DNA of 64,000 nucleotides from Vulcanimicrobiota bacterium (GCA_050250895.1 JBFWNU010000001.1:2852891-2916890); one strand, 5' to 3'. Positions 39,687 through 55,753 are shown, counted from the stretch's first letter. The notes: a model not told the origin generated them from the sequence alone. Translations and numbers: made by a program.

Positions 39687-42600
39687 CTAGAGGTCAAATT
39701 CCCGGAGTCGCCTCGCAACCAACCGCCTTAGTTCTGGTAGCCGTGAAAAAAGTTGGTTACCGGGGCACTCTGTTGGCACCAGGTCACGATGGCCAACGAT
39801 CGAGTCTGGACTTATTTTGCTTGCGTAACATATTGACGCACAAAGCTCGACCAATCTCTCCCATTGCTCGGGTGGCATCTCGGTTTTGCGAAAATCACCA
39901 AAGTTTTCAATGCCAATAGAATTTGAGTTGTCCTCCTTGGTCCCGGCGTGGGCGCCCTGGACAGTAAAGCCTTTTCGCGCGGCCGCCAACGAGCCTTCCC
40001 GCCCCTCAAAGACAACACCATCTGATGATATCACGAACTGAACGCCAACATCGTCCCACGCGCGCTCAAAATCTATTCTCTGGAGGGATCTCATGTTCGC
40101 TCGCGCAGTTCCTTCGGCGTCATTCCTGGCTAACACTGGCAAGCTCCCAGTGTGATGAATCACAATAGATTTAGCCTCCCCGAGCTTAAACTCCCGCTTC
40201 GCGCGCAGGGCCCCCCATTCCGATCTGGTCACGACCTCATCCAGAGTCTTGAAAGGATTGGGCGGGGCGACAGCCATACTCTGAATCGGCCACGCGCGAA
40301 CCTTCGGCTTTGGTGGAGGAAAGCCCGGAGGTGGGCCCCAAGCCAAGACTAAGAGAAGACCCAAGCCAAGGCCAAACGCGGTGAGTCGCTCTATCATCTG
40401 GTCGAGGAGCCCGATCAGAGCGAACCCTTGACCAATTAGGTAGACAGTACAGGCCAGCACGGGAAGCCACTCTTGGGCACCAACCAAATTCAAGGCAACC
40501 GCCAGCATCAATCCAGAAAGGGCCAGACGCCATCGTGGAGCCGAGTTGCCAGGAAGTTGGCCGATTTCCCAAATCCAATAGAGGGTCAGCAACAACCAGC
40601 CAAACCGCCCCGTGGAGGTGGAATATAAGATTGCGAGCACCGCTCGACCTGGAAGAGGAGTATTGAGATCCAGGCATCGCTCTGGGGCTACTCGATCCCA
40701 TAATCTGGCAACTTTCTGTCTCCAGATTGCCATCGCCAATACGAACGCGATAAGGAGCACCTCCGAAACGGGCTTGGCGCGGCCGGCCAGTTCAGCCAGA
40801 TAGAGGTCCAAAAGGAAGAGTGAGGTCAAGAAGCAGGCAAGTAGAAAGATGACTTCCAAAAATGACTGACGACAGGCAAGACGAGTGAACACAATCCGTC
40901 GAATTCCGTAGAGTGAAAAGACCAGAAACGCGATGAAGGGAAACGCGATGAAGGCTCCCGATGGCCAAGGAAAACTAAAGATGATCGCTGGCCACACGAG
41001 TAGTCCTGCGAATAGCCCACCCCGCGGCATCTCGTTGAAGGAGCCCTTTACCACCAGTTGGAGAGCCCGCTCCGGGTCGATTCGGTCCACCGCGCTCAGC
41101 GGGCGCCTGATTTGGAATGGGGCCCGGTGTTGCCACAGAATTCCCAGACATCCGCAACACATCATCAAGACAGCCCCGACGGGCTCGACAGCGAAACCGA
41201 AGGGAATCGAAAAAAGTAGCGCTCGATAGAGGCGCCCCTTCCGTTCTCCGTTGCCGAAGAGCAAAATGGCGCTTAACAAGGCCGCGAAGAGAATACCCAC
41301 GGGTCGCGGCCACCACAGAGCCGCAACCGTGCCCAGAACCACTGATCCTATCGTAGTCGGGATGGCCGAATGATGCTGCCCTATCTCGAGTGAGGCTCGG
41401 AGTTCCTTCAGAGCAGTCCACAAACGAAGCCGGACCCGTTGACGCTCGCCATCGTCCAGGGTAATTGAGCCCTCCGCACCATCTTCCGTTTCAGGCACAC
41501 TGGTGTCGTGCAAATGTCTGACGAGGTCGGCGACTTGTTCGCTTTGGGCTCGCGCCTCTTCGCGCGGGAGGCTTGCCAGCAACCAATCCCTCAGCCACGT
41601 TGGTATGGATCCGGTGCGAAACCAGGGGAGTCGGAAAAGTTTGAGCAGAGAGGCAGTGCCCCGTTCACCAGTGGGTCGCCCGGCTAGAAGTGCGAGCGTC
41701 AGATCGAAATGAAGACTCCTGTAGGTAGCGCAACTCTGAAGCACCCGAAAGTGGTCGTGCCCCAGGTATGCTTCCAACTGATTCAGGAACTCTTCGATTT
41801 TCTGCGGACTAGGAGGGCGCGGCGCCGTCCACGTCCGCTCGTCAAGTTGGAGAGCCAAAGGATATCCCTCTTCCGCTGGGTAAAGTTGCTCCTTCGCTCC
41901 ACTCGTTAAAGCATCCAAGCCCTCGTAGCTGAATGGAGAAATCAAAATCCCCGACTGCTTCAACCTGTTAAGCAACTCAGGGAACTCCAAAACGTCGGGT
42001 AGCGCCATCACTCGAACAATGCGCTCGCGCGAGAGTTGGAGCAACCATTTGAGTGGTTGAAAGGAGAATGCCTGGTGGAGACTCCTCGGTGCGGCGAATA
42101 CCCACACCTCGCTCGGGTTGAGTCGACCGAACAACTCCTCCCGGTGAAGCCACTGACCTCTGTAGCGCACAAACCTGGGTTCGCCCTCAAAATAGGCCCA
42201 ATGGACGGGGAGACTAGCGTCTAGGAGTTGTTGGGCGAAGCCTTCGAACAACCGAGCTTGGTGGTCAAGATGGGACCGCCGCTCTATTAGGAAGAAGTAG
42301 ACCTTCAACCTGGTTGTCTGATGGTACACTGGCGTGAAAAGCCCAGCATGGCGGACAGTGGCTTTCACCGACCGGCCAATGCTCAGCACCGGTTCTGCCG
42401 AGGCCTTCTTAAGTGCCAGACTCCGGACAAGCCGAGCGAGCAGATTGTGGTCAAACCAGCGTGACCCCGTCAGTTTGCGCTGAGAGTGACGTCTGAGAGA
42501 CACTTCCCACGCTTTTCTTACCAGGACTGGTTCAATGCGGGATAGCTTCGTCATGGCGACGAGGAGACAGGCAAGTCCGAGGCTCGCCAAAGTGGCGGTA

Positions 42601-44099
42601 AGAACCCAATCCGGCAGGAGCGGGGGCCTAGAAACAATTGAGGCACCAAGGTTCCATACCTTGAAGTTCCTTTCCAAATCCACAAGTCTTAGTTCTGGGC
42701 AGGAGGTGAACAACCAACGTCCATCTGCGCTGGTCAGTAGAGAGATAATCGACCCCTCCAGCTTGATACTGGAGACCTCACTACGCTTGGCCAAATCCCA
42801 TATTCTAACACGACCGTCCTCTTGTCCGAGAAGGAGCCGCTTATCCGGCGACCAGGTGAGCGTGGTAATTGGGCTCTCGGCTCTAGGAATGGTGGCGAGC
42901 AGTCGGTCGTATTCCCAGACTTGAACGGACCCATCCACTAGGAGGAGCCCGGCTTCCCCATCGGGGTGGCAAACCGCTTTCGCAACCGCCCGGCTAAGGG
43001 TCGCGCGCCGTGAAGCCTCGCCCTTGCTCATCCAATCGATCTCATTCTCACCAACCGCCGTTACAGCACGGTCGCCAGCCACTGCCAAAACTCGGTGCCC
43101 GATCGATCCCAACCGAAACGGGATGGGTGGGAGCATTTTGCCATCGCCATCGGCTCGTCCATCGATTCCGGCCACTAATGCCACTTCTCCATCGGCCAAG
43201 CCGCAGGTCAACGTCGGCCACTCGGACCCCCTCCCGGCCATCAGTGCTGTCACCGGTGCGGATCCGATCTCAATTTGAAAGCTGCGGATTGTCGGATCTT
43301 CAGCCGGCCGAAATGACCTGACATCAAAAACCCAGACACTCCCGTTTCCGTCACCTACGGCTAGGACTCGACCTGCCGCCACCAACTTCGTTATTGGACC
43401 GCCCCTCCACGGCGTCTCCGTTCGCCGCCCGTCGATCCAGAGGTCCAGTTTCTCACCTGATGCGACCGCAAGATAACCAGCCCCTGCGACAATCGGGGTT
43501 GTGATGGACGAATCGATTTGACCGAGGTCTTCGTAACCGTTAGTCTTTTCAAGATAGCGCTCAGAGAGTGTCCACATCCGCAGACTGCCGTCCGCGCCCA
43601 ATGCAAAGAGCGAAGAACCGCCGTGAGACTTACTAAAATTTGAAGAGTTCGGTGTCGGAATGACCGAAGGTTGGGGGGGAGCTTGAGGAACCATGTTCGT
43701 GCGACTGACATCCGACAGAAGGTCAGCGGGTGCGGTTGTGCGCGGCGGGCAGAACTTATAGGTCAGTATGAGAACTGTGCTAAGAAGGAGCGCGACTATC
43801 CACCACCTGGACTTTGGCACGGTTGGCGGCTCAACAACTGGCTCTGGCCCAGAACCAGCACTCTCAAGCCGGAGCCACTGAGCGAAGTCTCGCGAAAAGG
43901 TCTCCTGCTCCGGGGCACTTTTGACCAGAATTGGTCTCAGAAAGTCGCGTGCATCAGCGAGTCTGAACTCAGGGTTTCCTCTAACCAAGTTCTTTAGGAG
44001 TGCGTGGCCCCTTAGCCTCTCTCGAACTCCAACGCTATATCCTCGCCCCTCAAGAAATTCAAACAGCCGATCCAGCGTCGTCGGACTAGGAATCAACAA
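39687..44099 (-). CDS. MoxR-associated protein: TM + WD40 propeller + TM + degenerate vWA-like region + multi-TM + C-terminal Amidase_2/PGRP-like domain
   Basis: WD repeats (DGSLRMW, GSVWVFD, WSPD...DGRVRIWD); SIGRSVKATVRHAGLFTPVY...FLIERRSHLDHQ (vWA-like); many hydrophobic segments; VVTRSEWGA, IVIHHTG, GAH, SIGIE, GHRD, TECPG. Confidence 0.8.
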   Translation of the reverse strand: MLIPSPTTLDRLFEFLEGRGYSVGVRERLRGHALLKNLVRGNPEFRLADARDFLRPILVKSAPEQETFSRDFAQWLRLESAGSGPEPVVEPPTVPKSRWWIVALLLSTVLILTYKFCPPRTTAPADLLSDVSRTNMVPQAPPQPSVIPTPNSSNFSKSHGGSSLFALGADGSLRMWTLSERYLEKTNGYEDLGQIDSSITTPIVAGAGYLAVASGEKLDLWIDGRRTETPWRGGPITKLVAAGRVLAVGDGNGSVWVFDVRSFRPAEDPTIRSFQIEIGSAPVTALMAGRGSEWPTLTCGLADGEVALVAGIDGRADGDGKMLPPIPFRLGSIGHRVLAVAGDRAVTAVGENEIDWMSKGEASRRATLSRAVAKAVCHPDGEAGLLLVDGSVQVWEYDRLLATIPRAESPITTLTWSPDKRLLLGQEDGRVRIWDLAKRSEVSSIKLEGSIISLLTSADGRWLFTSCPELRLVDLERNFKVWNLGASIVSRPPLLPDWVLTATLASLGLACLLVAMTKLSRIEPVLVRKAWEVSLRRHSQRKLTGSRWFDHNLLARLVRSLALKKASAEPVLSIGRSVKATVRHAGLFTPVYHQTTRLKVYFFLIERRSHLDHQARLFEGFAQQLLDASLPVHWAYFEGEPRFVRYRGQWLHREELFGRLNPSEVWVFAAPRSLHQAFSFQPLKWLLQLSRERIVRVMALPDVLEFPELLNRLKQSGILISPFSYEGLDALTSGAKEQLYPAEEGYPLALQLDERTWTAPRPPSPQKIEEFLNQLEAYLGHDHFRVLQSCATYRSLHFDLTLALLAGRPTGERGTASLLKLFRLPWFRTGSIPTWLRDWLLASLPREEARAQSEQVADLVRHLHDTSVPETEDGAEGSITLDDGERQRVRLRLWTALKELRASLEIGQHHSAIPTTIGSVVLGTVAALWWPRPVGILFAALLSAILLFGNGERKGRLYRALLFSIPFGFAVEPVGAVLMMCCGCLGILWQHRAPFQIRRPLSAVDRIDPERALQLVVKGSFNEMPRGGLFAGLLVWPAIIFSFPWPSGAFIAFPFIAFLVFSLYGIRRIVFTRLACRQSFLEVIFLLACFLTSLFLLDLYLAELAGRAKPVSEVLLIAFVLAMAIWRQKVARLWDRVAPERCLDLNTPLPGRAVLAILYSTSTGRFGWLLLTLYWIWEIGQLPGNSAPRWRLALSGLMLAVALNLVGAQEWLPVLACTVYLIGQGFALIGLLDQMIERLTAFGLGLGLLLVLAWGPPPGFPPPKPKVRAWPIQSMAVAPPNPFKTLDEVVTRSEWGALRAKREFKLGEAKSIVIHHTGSLPVLARNDAEGTARANMRSLQRIDFERAWDDVGVQFVISSDGVVFEGREGSLAAARKGFTVQGAHAGTKEDNSNSIGIENFGDFRKTEMPPEQWERLVELCASICYASKISPDSIVGHRDLVPTECPGNQLFSRLPELRRLVARRLREFDL

Positions 44100-45024
44100 A
44101 CTCTCTGACCCACTCTAACGAAGGTGGCATATCCTCCTTGGCCTTTACCAAAAGGCCGAGGCTAGCGCTAAGGCGCTCGACTGCCCAAGACCAGTCGGGA
44201 CTATCGACCTCGTGAAGCCAGACCATGAACTCCCCCGTGCTCGGGATCCGGACCAGTCCACGCTCGCGCAGCCCAATAAAGAAGTCTAAAGCTTTGTCCA
44301 ATCGGTCTAGTCGCTCAAGACGCGTTGAAACCATCGCCTTTAGCTCTTCTTTCTCTGGAAGCGGAATATGGAAGTAGGCGCAGCGGCGGAGGAAGGGGCT
44401 CGGAAGAAGCGATTCCGCATTGCTTGTCAAGAAAATGATGGGACTGCAGGCTGGGTTCGCTTCTAGTTTCACTCTGTGCGGCAATTCTGTCATTTCGAAA
44501 GATGGAGCGTCCTCGAAGGCTGCAAGCAAATCGTTGGGGAAATCTCTCGGAGCCTTATCAATTTCGTCGATGAGGACCAAGCTTCGCACAGGCTCGGTGC
44601 CACACTCTGAGTTCCATAGGCTGAGCTCACGCGGCCGACCCTCGCCGTCCCTTCCCCAGGACCTAAGAATTGCCTTGCCTAGGGCGTTAAAGGTGACAAA
44701 AGATGTCGGCTCGATCGTCTCTCCCTCAGCGCGTAGCTGAGCAGCCCTGAAGTGCCCGATGTGGTCGAAGCTATAGAAAAGATCCTGGTAGCAGGTTGAA
44801 GATCTGGCATTAAACCGATATACAGGCACGCGGAGCTCATTTCCCACATAATAGGCCAGTTGTGTCTTTCCGACTCCTGGATCGCCGGTGACCAAAAACG
44901 GGAGGCCGAGCGTTAGGGCACTCTGTACAGCCTTCTTTAACTCGGGAGAAGCTATATATTCTTGAGGTCGAAATTTCGGTGGTAGGGTTGCTGGAAGGAT
45001 AAAATCCCCTGCCTTCTTGGTCAT
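44086..45024 (-). CDS. MoxR-family AAA+ ATPase
   Basis: ATG 45024 (ATGA overlap); GDPGVGKT, LIDEIDKAPRDFPNDLL, TSN, PFLRRC. Confidence 0.92.
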   Translation of the reverse strand: MTKKAGDFILPATLPPKFRPQEYIASPELKKAVQSALTLGLPFLVTGDPGVGKTQLAYYVGNELRVPVYRFNARSSTCYQDLFYSFDHIGHFRAAQLRAEGETIEPTSFVTFNALGKAILRSWGRDGEGRPRELSLWNSECGTEPVRSLVLIDEIDKAPRDFPNDLLAAFEDAPSFEMTELPHRVKLEANPACSPIIFLTSNAESLLPSPFLRRCAYFHIPLPEKEELKAMVSTRLERLDRLDKALDFFIGLRERGLVRIPSTGEFMVWLHEVDSPDWSWAVERLSASLGLLVKAKEDMPPSLEWVREFVDS

Positions 45025-46340
45025 TTGGCGTCTCCAAAAAAATGCGGCTTGAGAATGTCGCCAATGCGCTCTACCCAAATCTCCATGGTCAACGGCTCTT
45101 CGAGTATTTTTCTGGCTTGTGATTCTATTTGCTTTAGTTGGTAGGCTCCACACCACCGCGGAAGGTGCTCTAGATTGATCTTCTCGAAGCCGTCGATTCG
45201 AATACATTCGGCGCCGGGTCCGTTCAACCACGACTCCACGTCCCGCTGCGAGAGTGTGCTTTGAGCGGATGGGTTGAACCAGGTAGCCAACTTTGCCAAC
45301 AGCCCAGGTTCGCGGTATTCTAGAAAAAAGATCACAGAAGCCTGGGGATTTCTGCCGAGACTCTTTTTGAGCAGTCGAAGATATTCACCGAAACGGGGCT
45401 GCATCATTTTCCTTAGAGTCTCTTTCTGGCAGACATATTGATAAAGGAGTCGGGGGCCCCTTCCTACCTGTGAAATCAACTCTCTCTCCACTTCATCCGG
45501 TTCCCAACTCTCCAAGGGCGGGATGTCCAAGCTACGGGGTTCCTGGGGATGTGCGGCGAGATGATCGGTGAAGCGAGAGATGACGTGGCCTGCTAACCCA
45601 AACGCTGCGAACATTTGGCTGCGTTCTCTTTGTCCGGCCCTAAAGAGCTCTCTCTGCGAGTGCCGATTGACCAGGTATTCAACTACTCCCAGTCCCGGCC
45701 GAGAGGGTCCGCACGTAGGGCTCCCATTCCTCCCACCCGCTTCTAGTTCGAACGTGAAATCCCCACACACACTGCGATAACTGTCCAACTTTGGGTCTTT
45801 TCGAACCTCTCGTAGCAACTCTTCTTGCCGCCAACGACCAACCCACAAGATGTCTTTGACATCAATATCGCGACCAAACGGGTGATTCGTTTTTGGTTTG
45901 GTATCGGAGGCTTCCCAACGCTCGTCAAACTGTTTGAAGAACTGCTGTCGGAGTTCATCTTCCCTTTGGCTTTGACCCTCGTCGCTGTCCGCCAAAAAGT
46001 AGAGGGCGCAGTTTGCCGTATTTGTCATCTTGCCAATGAAGAACTCAAGTTCAAGGTATACCCAGCTCTTCTTTCTCGTCAGATTATTGATTGTGTTTTC
46101 AGAGACAAAGACTACCAAGCCTGCCGAGCTCCTCAAACCAGCAGCGAGTTTGGGCGTGATGCCGTCGCCGGGCTTGATAACCGCTTCGTCCAGGAAGACG
46201 GAGAGAGCGTGTTTACCTACTTCGCGAACCTTGAGCGAATCATAAACACTACGCACCCAGCCGCGCTCATGATGGTCTTGACCCTTGTCCCGGCTGTCGT
46301 GCGAAAGGAACAAATCGTAATGTTGATTATCGTCAGCCAT
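45021..46340 (-). CDS. TIR domain + probable inactive STAND (iSTAND)-like domain protein
   Basis: YDLFLSHDSRDK, VFLD, SWVYLEL; C-terminal YLVNRHSQ... region directly upstream of MoxR. iSTAND call is inferred from context. Confidence 0.7.
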   Translation of the reverse strand: MADDNQHYDLFLSHDSRDKGQDHHERGWVRSVYDSLKVREVGKHALSVFLDEAVIKPGDGITPKLAAGLRSSAGLVVFVSENTINNLTRKKSWVYLELEFFIGKMTNTANCALYFLADSDEGQSQREDELRQQFFKQFDERWEASDTKPKTNHPFGRDIDVKDILWVGRWRQEELLREVRKDPKLDSYRSVCGDFTFELEAGGRNGSPTCGPSRPGLGVVEYLVNRHSQRELFRAGQRERSQMFAAFGLAGHVISRFTDHLAAHPQEPRSLDIPPLESWEPDEVERELISQVGRGPRLLYQYVCQKETLRKMMQPRFGEYLRLLKKSLGRNPQASVIFFLEYREPGLLAKLATWFNPSAQSTLSQRDVESWLNGPGAECIRIDGFEKINLEHLPRWCGAYQLKQIESQARKILEEPLTMEIWVERIGDILKPHFFGDAK

Positions 46341-46353
46341 GTAACGGAGTGGA

Positions 46354-46374
46354 ACTGCGAAACGAATTCGCAGT
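46354..46374. other. Intergenic hairpin / palindrome
   Basis: ACTGCGAA-acgaa-TTCGCAGT, a perfect 8-bp inverted repeat between the two TIR genes. Confidence 0.45.
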
Positions 46375-46410
46375 CCAGCCGCCCTTATCCTGTCAACCTA
46401 TCTGCGATGC

Positions 46411-47145
46411 CTAGCCAAAGAAGGCGTCGAAAATGTGCGGGGAAAGGAGGAGGACGAGAAAAAAAAGCCAGGCGATGTTGACCTCGAGTTTACCCAACGG
46501 GGTTTCCCTCTCCGGGTCTTGCTTCAGGCCACCGAGGCCTGCGTCGTTTTGGCCGCTCTCAGGAAACTCATCAATTGATGGGGCCTTCTTTTGTATGTCA
46601 TTGATTGAAGGCGATTCCTCTCGCCATGATCCGGCCGGGGTTCCCCCCTCGAAAGGCCGGGATAGGGTGAAGCTGATTCCTTCGGCGAGAAGCTCGGCTT
46701 GTTGTAGCCACTCCGGTTGACCCGGGTGGAGTAACGCCTCGCGACCGTCTGTGTGGAGGAAGAAGCGAATCTGCTTAAACCTGGATAGAAGGTCCCAAAT
46801 CTCCTCAGCCGCCCGACTACGAGGTATTTCTGATTGGAGCAGGATGGGAACGACCTTTGACATACCGTGATTACCAAGAAACGCGGATAGCTCATATCGA
46901 CACCATTCGGACTCGAAGTAGGCCCGAGAAACAATGCAGAGTAACAGCCGGCTGCGCCCAAGCACCCTCTCTGCTTCAAATTCGACACCCGCTGAGAGAC
47001 CGGTGTCATTGAAGATTTTGGTGGGGCGGCCGATGTGCGCCGTAATCCTTTGCTGGAGGAACACCATTAGGGACTCCACCCACTCGGCATCTTCCCCTGT
47101 GTAGCTTATGTATAGGTCGTAGTCAGGGTCGTCTCGGATATTCAT
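46411..47145 (-). CDS. TIR domain protein with C-terminal TM anchor
   Basis: YDLYISY, KIFND, SEWCRYEL, VVPILL; C-terminal IAWLFFLVLLLSP. Confidence 0.85.
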   Translation of the reverse strand: MNIRDDPDYDLYISYTGEDAEWVESLMVFLQQRITAHIGRPTKIFNDTGLSAGVEFEAERVLGRSRLLLCIVSRAYFESEWCRYELSAFLGNHGMSKVVPILLQSEIPRSRAAEEIWDLLSRFKQIRFFLHTDGREALLHPGQPEWLQQAELLAEGISFTLSRPFEGGTPAGSWREESPSINDIQKKAPSIDEFPESGQNDAGLGGLKQDPERETPLGKLEVNIAWLFFLVLLLSPHIFDAFFG

Positions 47146-47150: not shown

Positions 47151-50100
47151 TTAGTCCTCGCCGCTGCCCCTCGCTGGAAGTGCGTCAAGCACCCGCCGGT
47201 CCCAACCCTTCGGTCGGACATCGGGGCACTTGGCAAGGGCCTTGCCGGTCGGCGGGGTTTCGGGTTTTAGACAAGCGAGGTCGGCGGGCTCCATCAAGGC
47301 TCTTCGACTCAAAGCCGCCCTCGCCTGCGTCCCTGACATCAAATCACTGCTCCCAAACAGACAAGCCTCACAGCCATCCGGGCACAGTCGTCCCGCGAAG
47401 CGAAAGACTTGCTCGGCCAGTCGCTCTTCGGGGCTCATCCCGGCCTCATGCGAGACGCCCTCCAGTCCCCGATAGGCGGCAAGTAGGCCCGCCAACTGTG
47501 GCGAGCGGCCGTCCTGAGCTGCTTTCACCGCTCCCGTTACCAGTTCCCAGGTCGACGGGGCCCTGGGCATCGACTGGGCCAGTTCGGCCTCGACCGCTCG
47601 CACTTCGCGAACCAGGTCGAAGAAGTCGAACTGCTCCACGCCGACCGTCTCGCGACCGTGCAACAACTGCACCAGGCGTCCAAGGTCACCATCCACGCTC
47701 AATTCGGTCCGTAGCGCCTCGACGAGAGCTGCCCGGTCGAGCGAGCGCCACCGCTCGTGCTGCTCGCTCATGGCCAGCATCCGGTCCACCGCCGCGTCCT
47801 CGCGAGCGTTCGGACAGTCCACCAGGCCATGGTCCCGAACCTCGTCGAGGGCCTCTTCGAAGCTCTCCAAAAAGGTCCGGGTGGTCCCGTCCCCGTGGTC
47901 ACCGTTCTCCACCACCGAGATGATGTCGTGAGACTCGGCCCCAAATTGCAGAGGCAGCCGAGCGTGAAAGAGCACCCGGCGCTCGTCCCCCCGCCCATAG
48001 AGCACGAAGAGGTCCCGCAGACGCATCGCCAACCCATGCAGAAAGAGCGACCGAAGGTAACCCCGAAAGACCTCCGCGTCGCTGACATCGGTGACGATCT
48101 TGCGAAAGGTGTCGGCGAAGCCGGCCCGCTCCAGCACCTTTTCCAGCTTGTCGATGCGCCGCTCGGTCAGCAACGGGTGATAGCGCAAGACGTTGCGATA
48201 GGTCTCTCGCAGCAGGTTCATCATCCTGGTCTGGTCCCACCGCCCCCGCAACACTTTCTTCCCTTCGTCACTGGCGGCCGCGCTCACGAACAACTCGGCC
48301 AGGCGGTTGGCTTCGAAGCTATTCACGCCGAGGCCCGATAGCCTGCTCTCCATCAAATAGGCCAGTAACTTGCCCCGATAGTGGCGCTCCTCGCCCGGAT
48401 TGGCCTGGAGATGCTCCAGCATGGCATCGACCCGAGCATCGAGCTTGGCGCTGTCGACGTGAAACCGCACTCCCTCGGTCTCGACCTGATAGCCGTGCAG
48501 CAGGGTCTTGTCGGTCTTGGGATAGACGAAGGTCTGGGTGAACTCGGCGTCCTGGGTCTTGGTGTCTTTGAGCTTCAGCGACACGTCGGCCCCCCAGTAT
48601 AGGCGGGTGACCCGCAGCCCCGTGCCCGGCCGGTCGGATGAGCCGACAAAGGCCTCGACTTTCTCGAACAGGTCAGATAGGTCGGTGGGGGTGATGTCGC
48701 TGCCGCGGCCGTCTTCAGCCGCCACCACCAGAAAGCCCCGTAGGAATGAGCGACTCTTTTCGGTGGCCGGCAGGCCCGGCTCTTGCTGTTGCTTGTCTCG
48801 CTTGATGAGACCGTGGCCCTCGCGATAGAGCCAACCCGAGGTGAAGCTGGCGCCAGACATTTTCCCGCCGAGGTCGAGGTCGAGGGTCTTCGGACGGCAG
48901 ATCTTGGGGTAGATCTCGGCCCCAAGGCCATCCCGCACCTCGACGGGCAGCTCGCGACGAAAGTCTTCTCCGCTCTGTTCCTGACCGGTGAGCGTGAAGC
49001 CGGTGCTGTCGCGATAGTCGCTCAAGAAGGGGCTGCGACCGGGCGTGGGGGGCACCCAGTGGACCGTCCCCATGCCGTAGCGGCGGGTCATATTGCCCGG
49101 GGCGCACTCGGTAAAGGCCAGGGTGATATCGACAGGCACCGGGTCTCGCGCATCGGGATGGCGCACCATCAGCAGCGGCAGGTTGATCGAGTCAAACAGC
49201 CGCTGGGGCACCCAGGCCAGACTGCCACGCCACGTCGAGGGCTCTGCGGTCACGTCCAGTCCTTCCTCTTCCAGCAGCTGCTGAAACAAGGGAAGCGAGC
49301 TCTCGAGGCCGAGAATGGCGAACACCGTTGGCCCGCAGGCGGCCACGACCATCTCATCCGCCATGGTCACCAGTTGAGGCGCCACCTCGAGCTTGCCAGA
49401 GGTTCTTCTCAAGCCGTACTTTCCGGGATGCAGGGTTCGAAAGCGGGCCACGGCGTCGAGAGCGGTGGCGGCCGCCTGACCACGCACGACGAAATAGTTG
49501 CTGATGTTGAGCGGCACCGCGAAGTTGCGGGCATCGAGCATCCGCCGAGGCGAGCGAAAGTACCACGAGTCTCGCGAGGAATAGACCGACAACGTCACTC
49601 CCGTCACGGGACGGTCATCGGCTCCGCGGCCCCCTCGACCCTTGCGTTGGATGAAACTGGCTAGATTGCCCGGAGCATAGTGCTGATAGACGAGCGTCAT
49701 GTCGGGGTCGTCATAGCCCACCTCGAGAGTCGAGGTGGCAAAAATGAGGTCACTGTTCTGCAGCAGTTCTTCGGTGCGACCGCTGGTGCCTGAAAAGATG
49801 GGGCGGTGGGCTACCGTGAGAGGGTCGCCGGGGCGATAGCGTTTGCCGGCCATCCACTGAGCCTGGTCGGTGGCCGCGAAGAACCAACACTCGCCCTCAC
49901 GAAAGCGGTCACAAGAGAGCGGCTCCCTGCAGCAGGCGCGGCACGGCTCGCCGGTGGCCGGGTCGTCGTCAAGTAGTTCGGTGCGTAGCGCCGCCAGTTT
50001 GTTGGCCTCCGCATCCGAGTAATCGCTGTGCAGGCGCTTGAGTTTGTCGATCGAGTCGAGAAAGACCACGCCTCGAAAGCCGCCTTCTTTGCCGGTACGG

Positions 50101-53100
50101 CGGCGCATTCCGTGGGCCAAACACATCAGGCACTGGATGGTGGTCGAAGCGCCGGCGATGTCCTGGCCTCGCGATTCGACCTCTGGCTGGACGAAGTAGA
50201 AATACTCCCGACCGCGCGGATTGACCAGTCGTTCCTCCTCGGTCGGCCCCAGGGCCACCACCTGCTGGCGGCCACAAAGGTCACCCCACACCCGGTCGGG
50301 GCGGCTCAGGGTGGCGCTCATCCCAATGGCCAGAGGACTTTCGTCGCCGTTGACGGTCAGGCGCGCCAACAACCGCCGCAGGGCATAGCCAACCTGGGCC
50401 CCGTGCACATGCGAGTAGAGATGGATCTCGTCGGCCATCACCGCCCGAGCGGGAGCAAACTCCGTATCGCCAAAGATCGCACCATATCTGGAGTCGTGTT
50501 GCCACTGGTGGAGCGACTCGGTGACCGGCAAGAAGAAGTGAGGCGGGTTTTGGCGCAGGCCCTCCTTCGAGCCAATCCACCCCAAGAAGCACCAACCGCA
50601 AGCACACTCCAGTCGGTCGGCCCCTCCTCGGCCCTCACCCTCGAGCAAAGATAGATCCTGCGAACATTCAGGACAAGAGAAGAAAGGAAACTGCAAGGCT
50701 CCGCCAGGCAGCGCCCGCCATTCTTCGAACTTGTCGGGGTTGGACCGCAGATAGCCAAAGGCCGAGGGTACGCTGCCGTTCTGCAAGCCGATGGTGAGAG
50801 GAGCGACCCCGGGGTGCTGGTTGAACGCGGCCAGGTAGCGCACCAACCGCTGCGCCTGGTTGGCCCCCAGGCGAATGCGGGGATAGACCAGGATGGCCCG
50901 GCAGCCGCGCACCCCCCGCAGTGCGTCGACGGCTGCTCCCACCAGCATCGGCAGGCAAGCCGCTTCGGTCTTGCCCGAGCCGGTGTCGGCTGTTACCACG
51001 AAGGCCTCCTCCTTGCCAACCCCCAGCCAGGCCGAGAGGATGCTCAAAAGAGCGCGCTGCTGAAAGCCGGCGATGGTCGGGTTGTCGACGCCCCAGCAGA
51101 CCGAGAGCATGTGAGCGCAGGCCTCCAGGGCCAACTCAAGATTGGGATCGTCGGCCAGCAGGCCCCGGGCCTGCTCCAGAGTGGCCCGCAGAGAAACGTC
51201 ACGAATCGGCTTCTGGCGGTCGATGGTCTCGAGCTTGAGTGAGCGCACCAGATAGGGGCGCCGGTGGGCGTCGCCCTTGCGAAAGCGCTGCTTCACGTAG
51301 CGCAACTCGCGGGCCAACTCGGCCATGCGACTGCGAACGCCGCCTTGCTCGTCGGGCATCAGATGGCCATGTTGCTCAAGCCGGTTAATGGGTTCTAAAA
51401 GCGCGTCGCGGGCCACACCCAGTCTTTCGGCCAGCGTGGAGAGCATCACCCACGATTCGGTCACGCCGAAATTGATGCGACCTCGCTCGATATCCTCAAG
51501 AGCGTTCAATACCTCGAAGTCACCGTCGGTGAGTTGCACTTCTGGCGGTGGCAGGGGCTGCTCGTTCACTTCCGTCGCGCTAGTCAGATCGAAGGTTGGT
51601 TCGTCGTTATGGCTGGTCTCCACCAAAAGGCCCTCTTTGACCAGGTCTCTCAGCAAGGGCAGTAAGACATCCTGCTCCTGGGCATTGACCCATACAAAGC
51701 TGTTGCGCAGGTGGCGGTATTGGGGCGCGAATCGGCCTCGGCGGCGAGAGTGGATCACCTCGTCGATGCGGCTGCGCACGGTCACCTCATCGGCGGTAAA
51801 TGGCAACGACGGCGGCTCGATCGGTTTGAAGCACCAGAACCTTCCGTGGGGCCCCGTCTGTTCGGCGAACTCGATCATGCCCAGGGTTAGCAACTGATGA
51901 AAGAGGGCGAAGGGCGGTTGGTAGGCAAGCTTCTTGCGGACTGCGCTCACGGTGGCGTTGCCGTAGCGGCTCTCGAGGGCGCAAGCTTTGATGGCTCCGA
52001 AGAGTTCCTCGAGTTCCCTCGTCAGCTCTGGGGGATCTTCGACGGCAGAGACCTCGACTGGCTGTAGCTCTTCTGGCGCCTGACCGAAGGTCTTGACGCG
52101 GATGGTGACCTCGACCCCTCTTCCGTCGCACTGACGTTCGACTGCGCCGATTTTGTGTGTGTCGAAGAGGAACTCGCGCAGCAGTTGGGCGTGTTCAAAG
52201 AGTTCCTCGTCGGGTGGCACCACCTCGAGCAGACGATTGCTGGCGATCACCACCAGTTTGGTCTTAGCTCGCGTGATCATCACGTTGAGGCGCTGGGGAT
52301 TGAAGAGAAACTCGGCCTCTGACAGAGCGAATTCTGGGTCTGAGACGGTGTAGCAGGCCAGAATGGTATCGCGCTCTTTGCCCTGGATGCGCTCCACCGT
52401 CTCGACCACACAGCCCTCACTCAGCGTCGAGTTCTCGAAGCTCCGTCGAATAGCGGCGTTCTGGGCACGATGCGGCGTGATGATGGCGAACCGGTCCTGC
52501 CAGAACTGGTCGTGGTCGAGATAGCGGTGGAACAGCCTGGCCAGGTGGCCGGCTAGATCGACCTCGAATGGGTTGAGCGTGCCGTTCGGCGGGCCATCGT
52601 GCAGCAGCACCACGATCGGATGCTCGGGGTCGAGCACGGCGCACTCCCAGGGGGCTAGAGCCTCCCTCCAGTCGCCTCGCAGTTCCAGGCGCTGCTGCCC
52701 TGACTGCTCGGACGCTTTGTAGTTGCTCTGGTAGAAGCTCTGCGCCGGAAAAGCGGCCAGGGGGGCATTGAGCCGAAAAGTCTCGTCGAGGGGAAACTCC
52801 GGAATCTCGGCCTTCTTCAAGAAGGCATAGAGCGAGCCCGTGAGGCGCCGCTCATCGAGTTCTTCATCCTGGCTGGCCCGGATGGGAGCTAACTGGCGGT
52901 CGTCGCCCACCACCAGCACGCGCCCGTCGTTGGCCAACCCACCTAGCCCCAGCAGGCCGTGCGAGAGCAGCATTTGCGAGGCTTCGTCGACACAGACCAG
53001 GTCGAACCTGGGAGCGTCGCCCCGTTTGAGCCTCTTGAAGAGCGACCACACGGTACCGCCGGCCACAAACCACTCGGCCTCGAGCGGCTTGACCGTCTTG

Positions 53101-53522
53101 TGGTCGAGGGCCTCCACATCGCCAGCCAGATCCTCCGGAGCCTGCTTGCCCAGGAAGAATACCGGCCCCGGGCCCGTGCGGCGCACGACCGCGTTCAGCA
53201 CGTTGACCACCGCGTTGCGCGTGAAGGCCGTCACGAAGACTCGGCAGGGCCGATTCTGGGCTTGCCGAGCCCTCAGATAGCCCACTGTCATGGCCGAGAG
53301 CACGAAGGTCTTGCCGGTGCCTGGAGGGCCTAGCAACAGTGCCGCCCTGTGGTTGGCGATCCCCTGCCAGGCCCGCTGTTGGCCGTCCAGGAGTTTGGTC
53401 ACCCCGCTCAGTTCCTGGCCCTCGAGCCAGGCTTGTCGGGAGTGCTCGGCCACCTGGGCCGCAAATTCGGCAGGCTTGGCCAGAAAGTGGTTGATTTGTT
53501 GGCGCACGCCGCTGTCGATCAC
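47151..53522 (-). CDS. dpdJ: Fusion of Dna2/Upf1-like SF1 helicase and DpdJ (SF2 DEAD/DEAH helicase), 2123 aa
   Basis: SF1: GPPGTGKT, DEASQ, GDDRQL, TVERIQGKE, RLNVMITRAK. SF2: ADTGSGKTEA, DEIH, SATL, TSTLEVGYD, QRKGRGGR; C-terminal CPDGCEAC. Confidence 0.85.
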   Translation of the reverse strand: MIDSGVRQQINHFLAKPAEFAAQVAEHSRQAWLEGQELSGVTKLLDGQQRAWQGIANHRAALLLGPPGTGKTFVLSAMTVGYLRARQAQNRPCRVFVTAFTRNAVVNVLNAVVRRTGPGPVFFLGKQAPEDLAGDVEALDHKTVKPLEAEWFVAGGTVWSLFKRLKRGDAPRFDLVCVDEASQMLLSHGLLGLGGLANDGRVLVVGDDRQLAPIRASQDEELDERRLTGSLYAFLKKAEIPEFPLDETFRLNAPLAAFPAQSFYQSNYKASEQSGQQRLELRGDWREALAPWECAVLDPEHPIVVLLHDGPPNGTLNPFEVDLAGHLARLFHRYLDHDQFWQDRFAIITPHRAQNAAIRRSFENSTLSEGCVVETVERIQGKERDTILACYTVSDPEFALSEAEFLFNPQRLNVMITRAKTKLVVIASNRLLEVVPPDEELFEHAQLLREFLFDTHKIGAVERQCDGRGVEVTIRVKTFGQAPEELQPVEVSAVEDPPELTRELEELFGAIKACALESRYGNATVSAVRKKLAYQPPFALFHQLLTLGMIEFAEQTGPHGRFWCFKPIEPPSLPFTADEVTVRSRIDEVIHSRRRGRFAPQYRHLRNSFVWVNAQEQDVLLPLLRDLVKEGLLVETSHNDEPTFDLTSATEVNEQPLPPPEVQLTDGDFEVLNALEDIERGRINFGVTESWVMLSTLAERLGVARDALLEPINRLEQHGHLMPDEQGGVRSRMAELARELRYVKQRFRKGDAHRRPYLVRSLKLETIDRQKPIRDVSLRATLEQARGLLADDPNLELALEACAHMLSVCWGVDNPTIAGFQQRALLSILSAWLGVGKEEAFVVTADTGSGKTEAACLPMLVGAAVDALRGVRGCRAILVYPRIRLGANQAQRLVRYLAAFNQHPGVAPLTIGLQNGSVPSAFGYLRSNPDKFEEWRALPGGALQFPFFSCPECSQDLSLLEGEGRGGADRLECACGWCFLGWIGSKEGLRQNPPHFFLPVTESLHQWQHDSRYGAIFGDTEFAPARAVMADEIHLYSHVHGAQVGYALRRLLARLTVNGDESPLAIGMSATLSRPDRVWGDLCGRQQVVALGPTEEERLVNPRGREYFYFVQPEVESRGQDIAGASTTIQCLMCLAHGMRRRTGKEGGFRGVVFLDSIDKLKRLHSDYSDAEANKLAALRTELLDDDPATGEPCRACCREPLSCDRFREGECWFFAATDQAQWMAGKRYRPGDPLTVAHRPIFSGTSGRTEELLQNSDLIFATSTLEVGYDDPDMTLVYQHYAPGNLASFIQRKGRGGRGADDRPVTGVTLSVYSSRDSWYFRSPRRMLDARNFAVPLNISNYFVVRGQAAATALDAVARFRTLHPGKYGLRRTSGKLEVAPQLVTMADEMVVAACGPTVFAILGLESSLPLFQQLLEEEGLDVTAEPSTWRGSLAWVPQRLFDSINLPLLMVRHPDARDPVPVDITLAFTECAPGNMTRRYGMGTVHWVPPTPGRSPFLSDYRDSTGFTLTGQEQSGEDFRRELPVEVRDGLGAEIYPKICRPKTLDLDLGGKMSGASFTSGWLYREGHGLIKRDKQQQEPGLPATEKSRSFLRGFLVVAAEDGRGSDITPTDLSDLFEKVEAFVGSSDRPGTGLRVTRLYWGADVSLKLKDTKTQDAEFTQTFVYPKTDKTLLHGYQVETEGVRFHVDSAKLDARVDAMLEHLQANPGEERHYRGKLLAYLMESRLSGLGVNSFEANRLAELFVSAAASDEGKKVLRGRWDQTRMMNLLRETYRNVLRYHPLLTERRIDKLEKVLERAGFADTFRKIVTDVSDAEVFRGYLRSLFLHGLAMRLRDLFVLYGRGDERRVLFHARLPLQFGAESHDIISVVENGDHGDGTTRTFLESFEEALDEVRDHGLVDCPNAREDAAVDRMLAMSEQHERWRSLDRAALVEALRTELSVDGDLGRLVQLLHGRETVGVEQFDFFDLVREVRAVEAELAQSMPRAPSTWELVTGAVKAAQDGRSPQLAGLLAAYRGLEGVSHEAGMSPEERLAEQVFRFAGRLCPDGCEACLFGSSDLMSGTQARAALSRRALMEPADLACLKPETPPTGKALAKCPDVRPKGWDRRVLDALPARGSGED

Positions 53523-55753
53523 GCCTGGTCTCCCAGCATCTCGAGAAACTCGACCACCCTCTCGGTATTGAAGTCGCGGAAGGAGCGGTCAATAAACCAC
53601 TGATCCTCGGGGTTGTCCAGCAAAAGGTGCTGCATCTCGGCGGACCCGTACTTCGCGGCCCACATCCGGGCCCGCACCTGCGTGTTGCTGTCGACAGGGT
53701 CTAGTTGGATCTGAAAAGGTTCCCAGCGGGTGGGGTCGAGCAGGATGTCGGGGTCGTTGTTGGTCAGCACCAGGTTGATGTCATCCGGCCCCAACTCCGC
53801 GTCGCGGCTTTCGGTTGGCACCCTGAACCTGAACCTGGCCCACGGCTTGCCCTCGCGATGACTCTCGAGTCGCAGCTGGGCGAAGCACTTCATCGCATCG
53901 CGGCGCGCCTCCCAAGGTTGGGCCAGGCTGATGAGGGCGTTGAGCATCCCAGACTTCTCGGCCAGCAACTCGTAGGCTCGCAAGATCTCGAGGTCTTCTC
54001 TACCCAGCGGATTGAATTCGGCCTGGAACGCGAAAGGCTGTTTTCTCAGCCGCAGGAACGGAGAAGCAGCGGCAGCGTTCTGTTCGAGCACCCACCGGGC
54101 CAGGTGGCGCAACGAGGCCAGACGAATGCGCAGGTCGTCTTCGATGTCGCGCATACCCCGGTGACCATCTCGAAGCTTGCGCAAGACCTCGATGGAGAGT
54201 CGGGTGGAGAAGTCTCGCTTGAAAGCTTGCGACGGTTCGTAGGCCTCGCTCAGTCCGACAGCGGTGAGAGCCTGGGTGACCTGGCGCAGGTCGTAGGACA
54301 CTGTCACCGGCAGCAGATAGAGCTGCTCCATCACCGTCCTCAGGGCGGTGGCGGGAAGGTGGTGATAGCCGCGATAGCCTGGTTCGGGGATGACTTCTTC
54401 GGGCGGGAATAGTCGCACCAGGTCAAGCAGTCCGGTGCGGATGTCGGGGTCGTTCAGGTGGCGACCCACTGCCCGTTGCAAGTCTTTGGCTTCGGATGGC
54501 TCATAGAGCAAGATGTGGGCGTAGAGGCGCTGGGCTTCGGGCAGCCGCTGGTTGTGCTCGTGCAGCCGTCGCAGGTCGAGGACCAGTTTGCCCAGCACTT
54601 GCTTTAGCGCGCGTATCTCCTCGGCGGGCTGGCCCTTCGGCAAGAGGGCTGTGGCGTATTGCACCTCACCCTGCCAGTCGAGGAGATAGCCGAGAGTGAC
54701 CAGGTTGCCCTGCATCGGGTCGGAGTCGACCACCAGATACAGGCCTACGTCGATGCGAGGTGGCATCAGGTAGGTATAGCGCTCTTCGAGTATCTTCGGC
54801 TGCCCATTCACCAGCGTCTCGGCTCGGAGCCGGAGCAACTCGGCCTGGCGCTTGAGCGACCAGCTGTCGAGCTTCTGGTTGCGGATACCCTGGGCGCGGG
54901 CCAGGCCACCCACTGTGTGGATGCCCAGCTTCTCCAGGGCCCGCTTGGCCTCGTGGCTCATGCCCGGCACGGCCGATACGTCATTCTTGGCGGCTTCTCG
55001 CTCGATGGCGCGACGGCAATGGGGGAGATAGCCACACTGCTCGCATTTGTAGTAGAGGTGGAAGAAGGTTTCGTCTCGTCCGGGTTCTACGACCTGTTCT
55101 TGCAGCCGAGGCACGGTTCTTTCGAAGAAGTCTCTGACCAGGTTCTCATAGCTCTTGAGCTTGAACTCGAGCCTGTCATAGAGCCCGTCGGCTCCGTCTT
55201 CACCGCGGCGCAGGTGCCAGATTTCGCCCACTTCGTCCACTCTCGCCTCGACGCCCATGTCTTTGAGCATGCCCTGGAGCAGGTGGGAGTAGAAAGCCAC
55301 CTGCGCTTTGTGGAAGTAGGTGGCCACCTGGGTTGCTTTGACGTCGATGATGCGAATGGCGCCGTCGACCCACTGGAGTAGGTCGGGGTAGCAATGCCTG
55401 AAGATGATCTGGTCGTCGCTGCTGAGTTGCTGCCTCAGGCTCGGGCCGCCGAAGAGGACGGCCTGGTGGGCGAACTCGCAGTCGTTCTGACCGCGCAGGA
55501 AGGCCGCCGTGATGCGCTGGCCGAGGTTCTGCTCGCCCGCCTTTGGGGTGAGGACCTTGCTCTCGCGCGCCAGGCGGCGGACGACGGCCAGTTCGAAGTC
55601 GTTGCCCAGTTCGGCCCAGCTGTCCTTCTGGTCGTCTTTGAGGATAGGGATGGCCTCGCGCTCGTCGCGACTCATCGTCTCGTAGCGCGTCTTGCGGTCA
55701 CATCGATATTGAAACCACGATTTGATGGTCGTGGCACTGAAGCTTAGTGGCAT
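53519..55753 (-). CDS. PD-(D/E)XK RecB/Cas4-like nuclease with putative Fe-S cysteines (Dna2/TM0106-like N-terminal half)
   Basis: YRCDRK...PDLL...IIDVKAT...HKAQVAFY...KCEQCGYLPHC; HhH-like VPGMS; 4-nt overlap with the helicase-DpdJ gene. Confidence 0.82.
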   Translation of the reverse strand: MPLSFSATTIKSWFQYRCDRKTRYETMSRDEREAIPILKDDQKDSWAELGNDFELAVVRRLARESKVLTPKAGEQNLGQRITAAFLRGQNDCEFAHQAVLFGGPSLRQQLSSDDQIIFRHCYPDLLQWVDGAIRIIDVKATQVATYFHKAQVAFYSHLLQGMLKDMGVEARVDEVGEIWHLRRGEDGADGLYDRLEFKLKSYENLVRDFFERTVPRLQEQVVEPGRDETFFHLYYKCEQCGYLPHCRRAIEREAAKNDVSAVPGMSHEAKRALEKLGIHTVGGLARAQGIRNQKLDSWSLKRQAELLRLRAETLVNGQPKILEERYTYLMPPRIDVGLYLVVDSDPMQGNLVTLGYLLDWQGEVQYATALLPKGQPAEEIRALKQVLGKLVLDLRRLHEHNQRLPEAQRLYAHILLYEPSEAKDLQRAVGRHLNDPDIRTGLLDLVRLFPPEEVIPEPGYRGYHHLPATALRTVMEQLYLLPVTVSYDLRQVTQALTAVGLSEAYEPSQAFKRDFSTRLSIEVLRKLRDGHRGMRDIEDDLRIRLASLRHLARWVLEQNAAAASPFLRLRKQPFAFQAEFNPLGREDLEILRAYELLAEKSGMLNALISLAQPWEARRDAMKCFAQLRLESHREGKPWARFRFRVPTESRDAELGPDDINLVLTNNDPDILLDPTRWEPFQIQLDPVDSNTQVRARMWAAKYGSAEMQHLLLDNPEDQWFIDRSFRDFNTERVVEFLEMLGDQA

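Follow-up and report, generated by a model that had tools for sequence, protein, structure and literature searches.

A four-gene operon encoding TIR proteins, an ATPase and a membrane scaffold

In the window analysed here, that is, the whole stretch of 64,000 nucleotides from a Vulcanimicrobiota bacterium, four co-oriented minus-strand open reading frames (ORFs) span positions 39687-47145 head to tail, inside a Dpd (7-deazaguanine DNA modification) defence island. Gene 1 (46411..47145, 244 aa) is predicted to encode a standalone, tail-anchored TIR protein; gene 2 (45021..46340, 439 aa) a TIR domain (residues ~3-145) followed by a divergent inactive-STAND (iSTAND) module (~215-435); gene 3 (44086..45024, 312 aa when started at the ATG at 45024) an AAA+ ATPase of the MoxR clade; and gene 4 (39687..44099, 1470 aa) a membrane scaffold that would represent the 'vWA component' and whose relatives align over residues 534-874 and 1-98. 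The comparisons presented below make it very probable that the locus is an iSTAND-class MoxR-vWA ternary conflict system in a membrane-embedded form. What is new here is the C-terminal half of the scaffold, in which a transmembrane (TM) block and a domain resembling peptidoglycan recognition proteins (PGRPs) are without counterpart in 158 relatives or in 80 related loci.

An earlier note, written from the sequence alone, had placed four co-oriented genes at these coordinates and overlaps between the last three of them, and both descriptions hold on the minus strand. The gene 2 stop and the ATG at 45024 form an ATGA overlap, and this ATG is most likely the start of gene 3, whose longest ORF covers 44086-45231. 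Gene 4 begins with TTG and shares 14 nt with the end of gene 3, and a gap of 70 nt separates genes 1 and 2. Gene 1 itself starts 5 nt past the stop of the DpdJ gene. A consensus scan for promoters and terminators over the operon returned sites no commoner than in shuffled sequences.

The public gene call for gene 4 comprises only 827 aa, starting at an internal GTG at residue 644. We rejected this call as truncated by 643 residues, because it drops the N-terminal domain common to the relatives and would halve an alpha/beta domain that was confidently modelled as one unit across residue 644.

Related loci share the gene order of the operon

We scanned one genome per species with the pattern L[VA]RLPWFRxG, working from a 12-sequence alignment, and confirmed 123 loci, 80 of which were kept. 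The window's own version of the motif, LFRLPWFRTG, lies outside this pattern. The 80 loci came from Acidobacteriota, many filamentous cyanobacteria, relatives of Beggiatoa and Thiomargarita, Planctomycetota, Gemmatimonadota and others. In 64 of the 80 loci, the core gene had a gene 3 homologue (E <1e-30) directly upstream and in the same orientation; in 6 of 80 such a homologue was fragmentary, and the 10 loci lacking it comprised nine cut by a contig end and one true miss (L079). The ATPase gene was in turn preceded by another ORF on its strand, 100 aa or longer, in 61 of the 64 loci, and in 24 of these 61 the two genes overlapped by 4 nt, as they do in the window. After the four shortest, of 117-237 aa, had been set aside, the other 57 ORFs were scanned by Pfam, which identified iSTAND (PF19995) in 49, TIR_2 in 20, caspase in 5, DUF4062 in 5 and EAD9 in 3. 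Upstream of the iSTAND gene, the commonest Pfam match in the 57 loci was caspase (7), and TIR was found in 2.

Of the 53 complete scaffolds, 44, chosen to fit a limit on residues, were scanned for added domains. FGE-sulfatase was the commonest of these domains (12/44) and WD40 the next (6/44). The FGE-sulfatase count matches the description of iSTAND ternary systems by Kaur et al. (eLife 2020, PMC7159879), who report that the vWA protein carries TM segments in a subset and ends in a highly variable C-terminus, most often FGS (~22%). According to the same authors, such systems combine a MoxR ATPase, a vWA protein and a third protein in which an inactive STAND stands behind a TIR, a peptidase or an adaptor. 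The earlier note had read the operon as a member of such a TIR/TIR-iSTAND-like/MoxR/vWA family, and this reading is borne out by the counts of upstream MoxR, iSTAND and TIR_2 genes given above, together with the ESM Atlas similarity (0.95) and the structural similarity (TM-score 0.66) of gene 2 described below. The note had also considered that the homologues might never be linked with MoxR or TIR genes; this linkage is clearly present.

Two further observations were made in these loci. In seven of them, cyanobacterial and other (L019, L024, L026, L028, L032, L037 and L039), the region ~1 kb upstream of the iSTAND gene held a same-strand ORF of ~316-332 aa that ended 17-85 nt before this gene. 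In Anabaena azotica (L003), an iSTAND-MoxR-scaffold operon occupied positions 5045-10094 of a plasmid of only 38.5 kb, and such cassettes can therefore be plasmid-borne.

Gene 4 belongs to a widespread scaffold family and has a possibly vWA-like core

A word-based search with gene 4 returned 16 proteins, one of them the window's own 827-aa call. True relatives aligned to residues 534-874, and many also to residues 1-98, with E-values as low as 4e-33. An exhaustive phmmer search with residues 521-910 against 1.84e9 representatives retrieved 2035 of them at E <=1e-3 and 1015 at E <=1e-10, the core family being counted as representatives at 50% identity; the closest was 38% identical. The RLPWFRxG signature was present in 113 of the 168 proteins gathered. 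The family plan consists of an N-terminal helical domain, a TM segment, a variable insert, a second TM segment, an alpha/beta-plus-helical core, usually one TM segment and an unrelated C-terminal module. Such modules include TIR, a multi-haem-like domain, WD40, metallo-beta-lactamase and FGE-sulfatase. Judged by its sequence, gene 4 is a large scaffold of this iSTAND-class family.

The N-terminal helical domain (residues 1-96; 43812..44099) matched 56 of 163 relatives and 35 ORFs of the related loci by BLAST, and a Pfam scan of the same residues gave no match. Kaur et al. (2020, PMC7159879) describe a CoxE-like 4-helix N-terminal domain in the vWA protein, and the CoxE link for gene 4 comes from that description alone. 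In the core, an alpha/beta Rossmann-like domain (residues ~560-735; 41895..42422), vWA-like and with a degenerate metal-ion-dependent adhesion site (MIDAS), is followed by a conserved helical module (residues ~745-870; 41490..41867) that contains the signature RLPWFRxGxxPxWLR with invariant columns. This module is probably the vWA-L linker, the name given to the helical connector in the 2021 follow-up by Kaur et al.

The AlphaFold2 (AF2) model of the core was confident (pLDDT 85.4, pTM 0.81) and continuous across residue 644. In a Foldseek search, its best PDB match was the vWA domain of NorD in the NorQ-NorD complex (E 2.3e-3, prob 0.93, TM-score at most 0.35), and the matches listed included five NorQD entries. 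Several results weigh against a vWA assignment. No Foldseek match reached 1e-3, and unrelated Rossmann-type folds scored alike. The Pfam vWA models did not match gene 4, nor did they appear among the families shown for 12 relatives at E up to 10. Moreover, the profile of the scaffold family retrieved nothing relevant, and no vWA, from the PDB sequences. Kaur et al. (2020, PMC7159879) place the vWA site at Asp residues that terminate strands 1 and 4. At the corresponding MIDAS-type columns, Asp was present in 46/59 and 37/59 relatives, and gene 4 carries E606 and A670; the first site is Glu in 7 of the 59 relatives and the second is Ala in 3. These substitutions suggest that peptide-binding in the canonical vWA mode may be lost in gene 4. 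The core is thus weakly supported, mainly by its model, as degenerate vWA-like. The earlier note had proposed a degenerate vWA-like region here: the NorD fold match and the two altered sites agree with it, and the Pfam models do not. Its broader expectation of vWA and iSTAND similarity on profile search also held in part, as direct Pfam matches were found for neither, and the family and fold evidence supports iSTAND well and vWA weakly.

Gene 3 reads as an intact MoxR-clade ATPase

Gene 3 contains the Walker A motif GDPGVGKT and the Walker B motif LIDEID. Pfam assigned it to the generic AAA/AAA_5 families only, and a single-sequence search of the PDB gave no match. A profile built from gene 3 and 34 of its 61 neighbouring homologues identified Midasin as the best PDB match (1e-15), and within this family the P-loop, the DE column pair of Walker B and the RR (Arg) columns were invariant. 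Midasin falls in the MoxR/dynein-midasin clade as defined by Kaur et al. (2020, PMC7159879). From these motifs and this profile, gene 3 is read as an intact MoxR-clade AAA+ ATPase. PADLOC named no system for genes 3 and 4, and scans of genes 2 and 4 against Pfam, NCBIfam and PADLOC yielded neither vWA nor iSTAND nor a named defence system.

Genes 1 and 2 carry TIR domains and gene 2 a probable, divergent iSTAND module

Gene 1 matched Pfam TIR_2 (1.7e-12) and TIR domains in the PDB, TLR2 among them. It contains one C-terminal hydrophobic helix at residues ~216-240 (hydropathy segment 216-244). Its Glu85 lies in a WCxxE motif, where SEWCRYEL aligns with SEWCKYEL of TLR2, and Glu97 of gene 2 lies within SWVYLEL; we take both residues to occupy the catalytic Glu position of the TIR WxxxE helix. 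Gene 1 is, by these sequence features, an extra tail-anchored TIR protein, and it is considered accessory because the gene upstream of the iSTAND gene varies among the related loci (caspase in 7/57, TIR in 2/57).

The TIR domain of gene 2 was recognized by TIR_2 below the gathering score (3e-5) and by the NCBIfam retron-TIR model (1.6e-10). No Walker A motif of the form GxxxxGK[ST] was present in gene 2, and a word-based homologue search retrieved only the protein itself. Three kinds of evidence point to an iSTAND module after the TIR domain. The AF2 model of gene 2 (pLDDT 73.5) matched best the TIR-NLR protein RPP1 in the PDB (2.2e-8), then AAA+ ATPases, SAMD9 and Avs4. Independently of this model, residues 205-439 were similar by ESM Atlas features (0.95 and 0.94) to clusters with iSTAND on 35-41% of their members. 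In addition, the Atlas's own single-sequence model showed a TM-score of 0.66 to an EAD2/iSTAND cluster, with iSTAND on 74% of its members.

The sequence comparisons are less favourable to this module. The 300 residues after the TIR domain gave no Pfam match, iSTAND included, even at E up to 10. An hhalign comparison with 50 of the 57 iSTAND neighbours reached a probability of 45.5% and E 2e-4 over residues 294-432, and in hmmsearch gene 2 scored 9.3 bits, which was equalled by 1 of 2000 shuffled sequences, with only its N-terminal part aligned. The AF2 model was built on an alignment with the presumed relatives, that is, the neighbour genes, and may be biased by them. We accepted gene 2 as a TIR domain joined to a divergent inactive STAND, a P-loop-less STAND-like module, for which the fold and feature evidence is better than the sequence evidence.

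The scaffold combines a WD40 loop, a TM block and a terminal domain

As the earlier note had proposed, gene 4 carries a WD40 beta-propeller (residues ~160-490; 42630..43622), matched by Pfam WD40 (5e-11) and many propeller families, between two TM segments: TM1 at residues 97-117 (nt 43749-43811) and TM2 at residues 498-518 (nt 42546-42608). The WD40 domains of the relatives are C-terminal and, in the BLAST set, never in the TM1-TM2 loop as in gene 4. The multi-TM block that the note had described is also present, at residues 911-1259 (40323..41369), where a TopPred-like scan called 10 TM segments as certain and 1 as putative, and so is the Amidase_2 domain that it had placed at the terminus (residues 1309-1448). 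The TM block gave no Pfam match and no usable ESM Atlas match. BLAST detected no similarity to the block or the amidase domain in 158 core-bearing relatives or in 3293 ORFs from the 80 loci. When the last 560 residues of gene 4 served as the query, only distant amidase-only proteins of at most 31% identity were retrieved. By hydropathy, 52 of 53 relatives have a TM segment before the core; after it, exactly one was found in 34/53 and five to nine in 6.

The N-terminal domain and the core would be cytoplasmic, so as to meet the soluble ATPase and the gene 2 product. The 27 residues after TM2 hold seven Lys/Arg, in agreement with a cytoplasmic core. With the N-terminal domain and the core inside, the WD40 loop is therefore probably extracytoplasmic. 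For the terminal domain, eleven TM spans would put it outside and ten inside. The Lys/Arg-rich loops at 953-970, 992-1024, 1067-1078 and 1129-1152 are all inside only if the segment 961-991 does not span the membrane, and the linker after the last TM segment (1260-1285) holds 4 Lys/Arg and 0 Asp/Glu, so that the positive-inside rule favours the cytoplasm and argues against an external sensor. Kyte-Doolittle, TopPred-like and Hessa-type scans returned differing segment sets and contradictory charge bias, and the amidase domain may lie on either side of the membrane.

The terminal domain is PGRP-like with the catalytic Tyr replaced

The PGRP-like domain (residues 1289-1454; 39738..40235) follows a Pro/Lys-rich linker (1260-1288). 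Pfam Amidase_2 (PF01510) matched residues 1309-1448 with an E-value of 6.3e-20 and 72.3 bits versus a cut-off of 26. Its best solved relative was Drosophila PGRP-LB (1.6e-18), and animal PGRPs led the matches; NCBIfam gave a weak AmpD match (0.007). When the domain was aligned to PGRP-LB, the Zn ligands were found to be kept (HH 1315/1316, H1437 and C1445). V1353 stands in the column of PGRP-LB Tyr78 (VGVQF versus IGYSF), where the deposited Y78F mutant has Phe. Among the bacterial PGRP-like relatives that could be aligned, Tyr occupies this column in 6/6. Glu1398, within SIGIE, is present in gene 4, and Glu is found there in 0/6 of the same relatives; its position is presumably that of the general base of AmpD-type amidases. 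The kept Zn ligands, the SIGIE Glu and the Val at the catalytic Tyr position had all been read from the sequence in the earlier note, and all are confirmed.

According to Orlans et al. (2021), from whom the identities of the Zn ligands are taken, even PGRPs without catalysis invariably keep the Tyr at position 78 of PGRP-LB, the Y78F mutant has lost activity on all substrates with peptidoglycan binding unaffected, T7 lysozyme Y46F is inactive, and receptor PGRPs are typically without the Zn site. Judging from its residues, the gene 4 domain has the amidase fold and is filed under that fold and not among the active enzymes, the catalytic Tyr being missing. Because Val replaces the Tyr whose loss kills both PGRP-LB and T7 lysozyme, the favoured and most likely prediction is that the domain binds peptidoglycan or muropeptides without cutting them. 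Two points count against this prediction: hydrolysis may still occur, given that Glu1398 sits at what we take to be the AmpD general-base position, and the amidase-tipped architecture is a singleton among the relatives and loci, so that comparative support for the role of the domain is absent. The words 'amidase' and 'PGRP' are absent from the main texts of Kaur et al. 2020 and 2021 and from two supplementary files, and the 2020 source data may list such an architecture. Our literature search retrieved no paper joining 'peptidoglycan recognition protein' with MoxR and TIR.

Comparison with known systems

The locus resembles the iSTAND systems of Kaur et al. in the order of third component, MoxR and large scaffold, in the N-terminal TIR on the third component, and in a scaffold that starts with a helical domain, contains TM helices and is hypervariable at its C-terminus. 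In both, relatives are spread over filamentous or aggregating bacteria, cyanobacteria and proteobacteria among them. Kaur et al. (2020, PMC7159879) report that in iSTAND systems the peptidoglycan-associating modules PEGA, OmpA, PASTA and Sel1 follow a TM segment, and the scaffold of the window likewise has a putative cell-wall-associating module after TM segments, as in this subset. In contrast to those systems, the scaffold ends in a PGRP-like Amidase_2 domain behind a block of 10-11 TM segments, the loop that joins its two N-terminal TM helices holds a WD40 propeller, both of the MIDAS-type acids have been substituted, and the iSTAND module has diverged beyond the reach of the Pfam model. 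The window also adds a tail-anchored TIR gene, at a position where TIR was found in 2/57 related loci.

Dore et al. (PNAS 2024, PMC10907252) described ternary systems diversified by diversity-generating retroelements, mostly of the VMAP type, in which the C-terminal ligand-binding domain is the proposed sensor and the TIR or peptidase partner the proposed effector. As in the operon, the MoxR ATPase there adjoins a large protein with a C-terminal ligand-binding domain, and some of the targets are described as periplasmic by way of TM helices. Unlike those systems, the binding module of the window is PGRP-like and not lectin-like (C-type-lectin/FGS), and a reverse transcriptase or template-variable repeats were not noticed in the operon, although no search was aimed at them.

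With the NorQ/NorD and CoxD/CoxE pairs, the operon shares a MoxR-clade AAA+ protein and an adjacent alpha/beta partner, NorD being the top fold match of the scaffold core and Midasin the top match of the ATPase. It differs from these pairs in lacking a vWA signal at the level of sequence, in having an integral membrane protein with sensor-like modules as the partner, and in containing a third component with a TIR domain. Gene 2 is like the TIR-STAND receptors in that its model aligns best with RPP1 (TIR and NB-ARC) and has Avs4 among its matches. Unlike RPP1 and Avs proteins, its module is without the Walker A lysine and without C-terminal repeat sensors, and would rely on a separate AAA+ ATPase.

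The terminal domain of gene 4 shares with animal PGRPs and T7 lysozyme the Amidase_2 fold and the Zn-binding His, His and Cys, and its predicted mode, binding with no cleavage, is that of the receptor PGRPs. The route would be the reverse, as receptor PGRPs lose the Zn site and keep the Tyr, whereas the gene 4 domain keeps the Zn site and has lost the Tyr. Unlike animal PGRPs, it is fused to a bacterial multi-pass membrane scaffold, and there is nothing to indicate a common descent with animal immune pathways. The likeness of the operon to PGRP-Toll logic is to be read as an analogy only.

Proposed function and alternative explanations

The presence of Dpd genes on both sides, of neighbouring TIR and helicase defence genes and, in all, of three more TIR genes or TIR-like defence matches in the window suggests, by association, an anti-invader function. 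We consider that the whole of the data is best explained, with somewhat better than even confidence, by a membrane iSTAND-class anti-invader system in the Dpd island that uses the PGRP-like domain as a sensor. In such a system, the scaffold would report an envelope event via its variable modules, the MoxR ATPase would act on the cytoplasmic core of the scaffold as a switch, and this switch would link the state of the variable modules to the assembly of the TIR-iSTAND protein. The TIR domain of gene 2, together with membrane-bound gene 1 recruited via TIR-TIR contacts, could then consume NAD+ or make a nucleotide signal, and this output would stop the infected cell. The PGRP-like domain would serve as a sensor or anchor for envelope or cell-wall damage and not as a lytic effector, and the WD40 loop could offer a second ligand-binding surface. 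In assigning a sensor role we follow Dore et al. (2024) and depart from Kaur et al., whose model makes the module an effector. The earlier note had suggested that sensing or cleavage of the cell wall is linked to TIR signalling; of these two, the change from Tyr to Val speaks for binding and not for cleavage. That peptidoglycan sensing is the trigger is possible, and we would sooner doubt it than rely on it. The most specific version, a bacterial immune receptor in which a silenced PGRP-type domain, perhaps with the WD40 loop, detects peptidoglycan damage or fragments and acts through the MoxR switch on the TIR enzymes, is unlikely to be right in full. Against the explanation as a whole, our literature search found no experimental study of an iSTAND ternary system, and the class is a computational prediction.

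The sensor role has its closest competitors in readings that keep the ternary system and change the part played by the terminal domain. Kaur et al. (2020, PMC7159879) describe the C-terminal modules of vWA proteins as effectors, and on their model Amidase_2 could be an active lytic enzyme that cuts the cell's own peptidoglycan from the periplasm in abortive infection. All three Zn ligands are indeed kept, unlike in typical non-catalytic PGRPs, eleven TM helices would place the domain outside, and Glu1398, at the presumed AmpD catalytic Glu position and found in 0/6 relatives, could be a compensating change. However, the Tyr is reported to be invariant even in non-catalytic PGRPs and its loss alone to inactivate PGRP-LB and T7 lysozyme (Orlans 2021), Val cannot donate a hydroxyl, the topology counts conflict, and no wall hydrolase was found at the equivalent position in the other family members examined; we regard a lytic effector as unlikely as well. 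The same topology counts allow the domain to be cytoplasmic, sensing anhydro-muropeptides, turnover products of the wall whose levels go up under attack, in a manner nearer AmpD or NOD than PGRP-Toll logic. The ten certain TM segments would put the C-terminus on the side of the core, the 1260-1285 linker has its 4 Lys/Arg and 0 Asp/Glu, the four Lys/Arg-rich loops leave the TM parity uncertain, and the NCBIfam AmpD match, weak as it is (0.007), points the same way. Nevertheless, the domain is far nearer the secreted or extracellular PGRP type (1.6e-18) than AmpD, and the post-core module of the relatives is usually behind one TM segment and in one case is multi-haem cytochrome-like, as read from its sequence, and presumably periplasmic. 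The peptidoglycan-associating modules are also placed after a TM segment by Kaur et al. (PMC7159879), and a cytoplasmic muropeptide sensor appears quite unlikely.

Two other explanations bear on the system as a whole. The operon could be a decayed, non-functional cassette acquired horizontally, its key sites eroded: E606 and A670 replace the family aspartates, V1353 replaces an invariant Tyr, gene 2 has no relatives by word search and fails the Pfam iSTAND model, the GC content is under that of the flanks and the architecture is a singleton. Against such decay, the four frames are intact, including a 4.4-kb ORF, the translationally coupled junctions are kept and the ATPase motifs are complete; moreover, Glu at the first acidic site and Ala at the second recur in 7/59 and 3/59 relatives, and the core was modelled with confidence (pLDDT 85). 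We hold decay to be very unlikely. The remaining explanation takes the operon as a non-immune complex for envelope or cell-wall remodelling or signalling, chaperoned by MoxR by analogy with NorQ/NorD or CoxD/CoxE and merely located in a defence island. Kaur et al. (PMC7159879) note that MoxR-vWA pairs are best known as assembly chaperones, NorD is the best fold match of the core, and the terminal domain is predicted to bind cell-wall material. This sits poorly with two TIR genes in the operon, with the TIR, caspase, trypsin and EAD modules, all characteristic of conflict systems, on the partners of the relatives, with the hypervariability of the C-terminal modules and with the position of the operon between Dpd genes and near TIR and helicase defence genes, and it is extremely improbable.

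Ternary MoxR-vWA systems are widespread, with ~2000 representatives of the core family at 50% identity, and in the literature found they were addressed by comparative genomics only. The variable C-terminal module is described as an effector by Kaur et al. and proposed to be a sensor by Dore et al., and this locus offers an assayable test of the two views: the module has a well-understood fold with a single diagnostic residue, so that binding the wall and cutting the wall are separable. If the domain binds without cutting and gates the TIR output, it would be a first example of peptidoglycan-triggered TIR immunity in bacteria. It would also couple a prokaryotic PGRP-like sensing to a TIR output and give direct support for the C-terminal modules of the scaffolds as sensors. 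If it does not, the locus would be one more architectural variant in a hypervariable family.

The operon lies in a rearranged Dpd island

The Dpd island covers 13681-39653 and 47151-55753 of the window and is split and rearranged, with other genes inserted. Upstream in the window, the plus strand carries QueC, QueE, DpdB, DpdA, a second DpdB, insertion-sequence genes, DpdE, DpdF, DpdG and DpdH. On the minus strand, the operon is preceded by the DpdJ helicase gene (47151..53522; PADLOC DpdJ, 1710 bits), which ends 5 nt before gene 1, and by a RecB-like gene at the DpdK position, so that the operon is placed between plus-strand DpdE-H and the minus-strand DpdJ/DpdK-like genes. At 0.53-0.57, the GC content of the operon is lower than the 0.61-0.66 of the Dpd genes around it, which fits an inserted cassette. 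We considered whether the operon might be part of the Dpd system itself and rejected this, as its relatives are also encoded in loci devoid of Dpd genes, cyanobacterial and acidobacterial ones among them, and the GC content is unlike that of the flanks.

Several other genes of the island were recorded. A third DGQHR-domain gene (21726-23375) is on the opposite strand to QueC/QueE/DpdB/DpdA/DpdB, and an HNH endonuclease gene (20829-21713, minus strand) is located between DpdB and this third DGQHR gene. The insertion-sequence genes within the Dpd cluster (23737-26105) comprise an IS66-family fragment (an ORF of 171 aa) and an ISKra4-family transposase (512 aa).

Besides those of the operon, two other genes of the window encode TIR domains. 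The first (26181-27695, plus strand) encodes a 504-aa protein in which an N-terminal TIR_2 domain is directly fused to a C-terminal FGE-sulfatase (FGS) domain, and among the variable modules of iSTAND-system scaffolds FGS occurs most often. The other (55811-57538, minus strand), just past the gene at the DpdK position, encodes a protein of 575 aa that contains two TIR_2 stretches (6.8e-30) and is weakly similar to SAVED-TIR in PADLOC. A NERD/UvrD-type helicase gene (59581-61218, minus strand) matched the PADLOC model of a reverse-transcriptase-associated helicase (7e-52); an adjoining reverse transcriptase was not noticed. Finally, three adjoining plus-strand genes (3702-8876) were weakly similar to cell-wall hydrolases (holin-associated muramidase-like, L,D-endopeptidase-like and NlpC/P60-like), all under the curated cut-offs.

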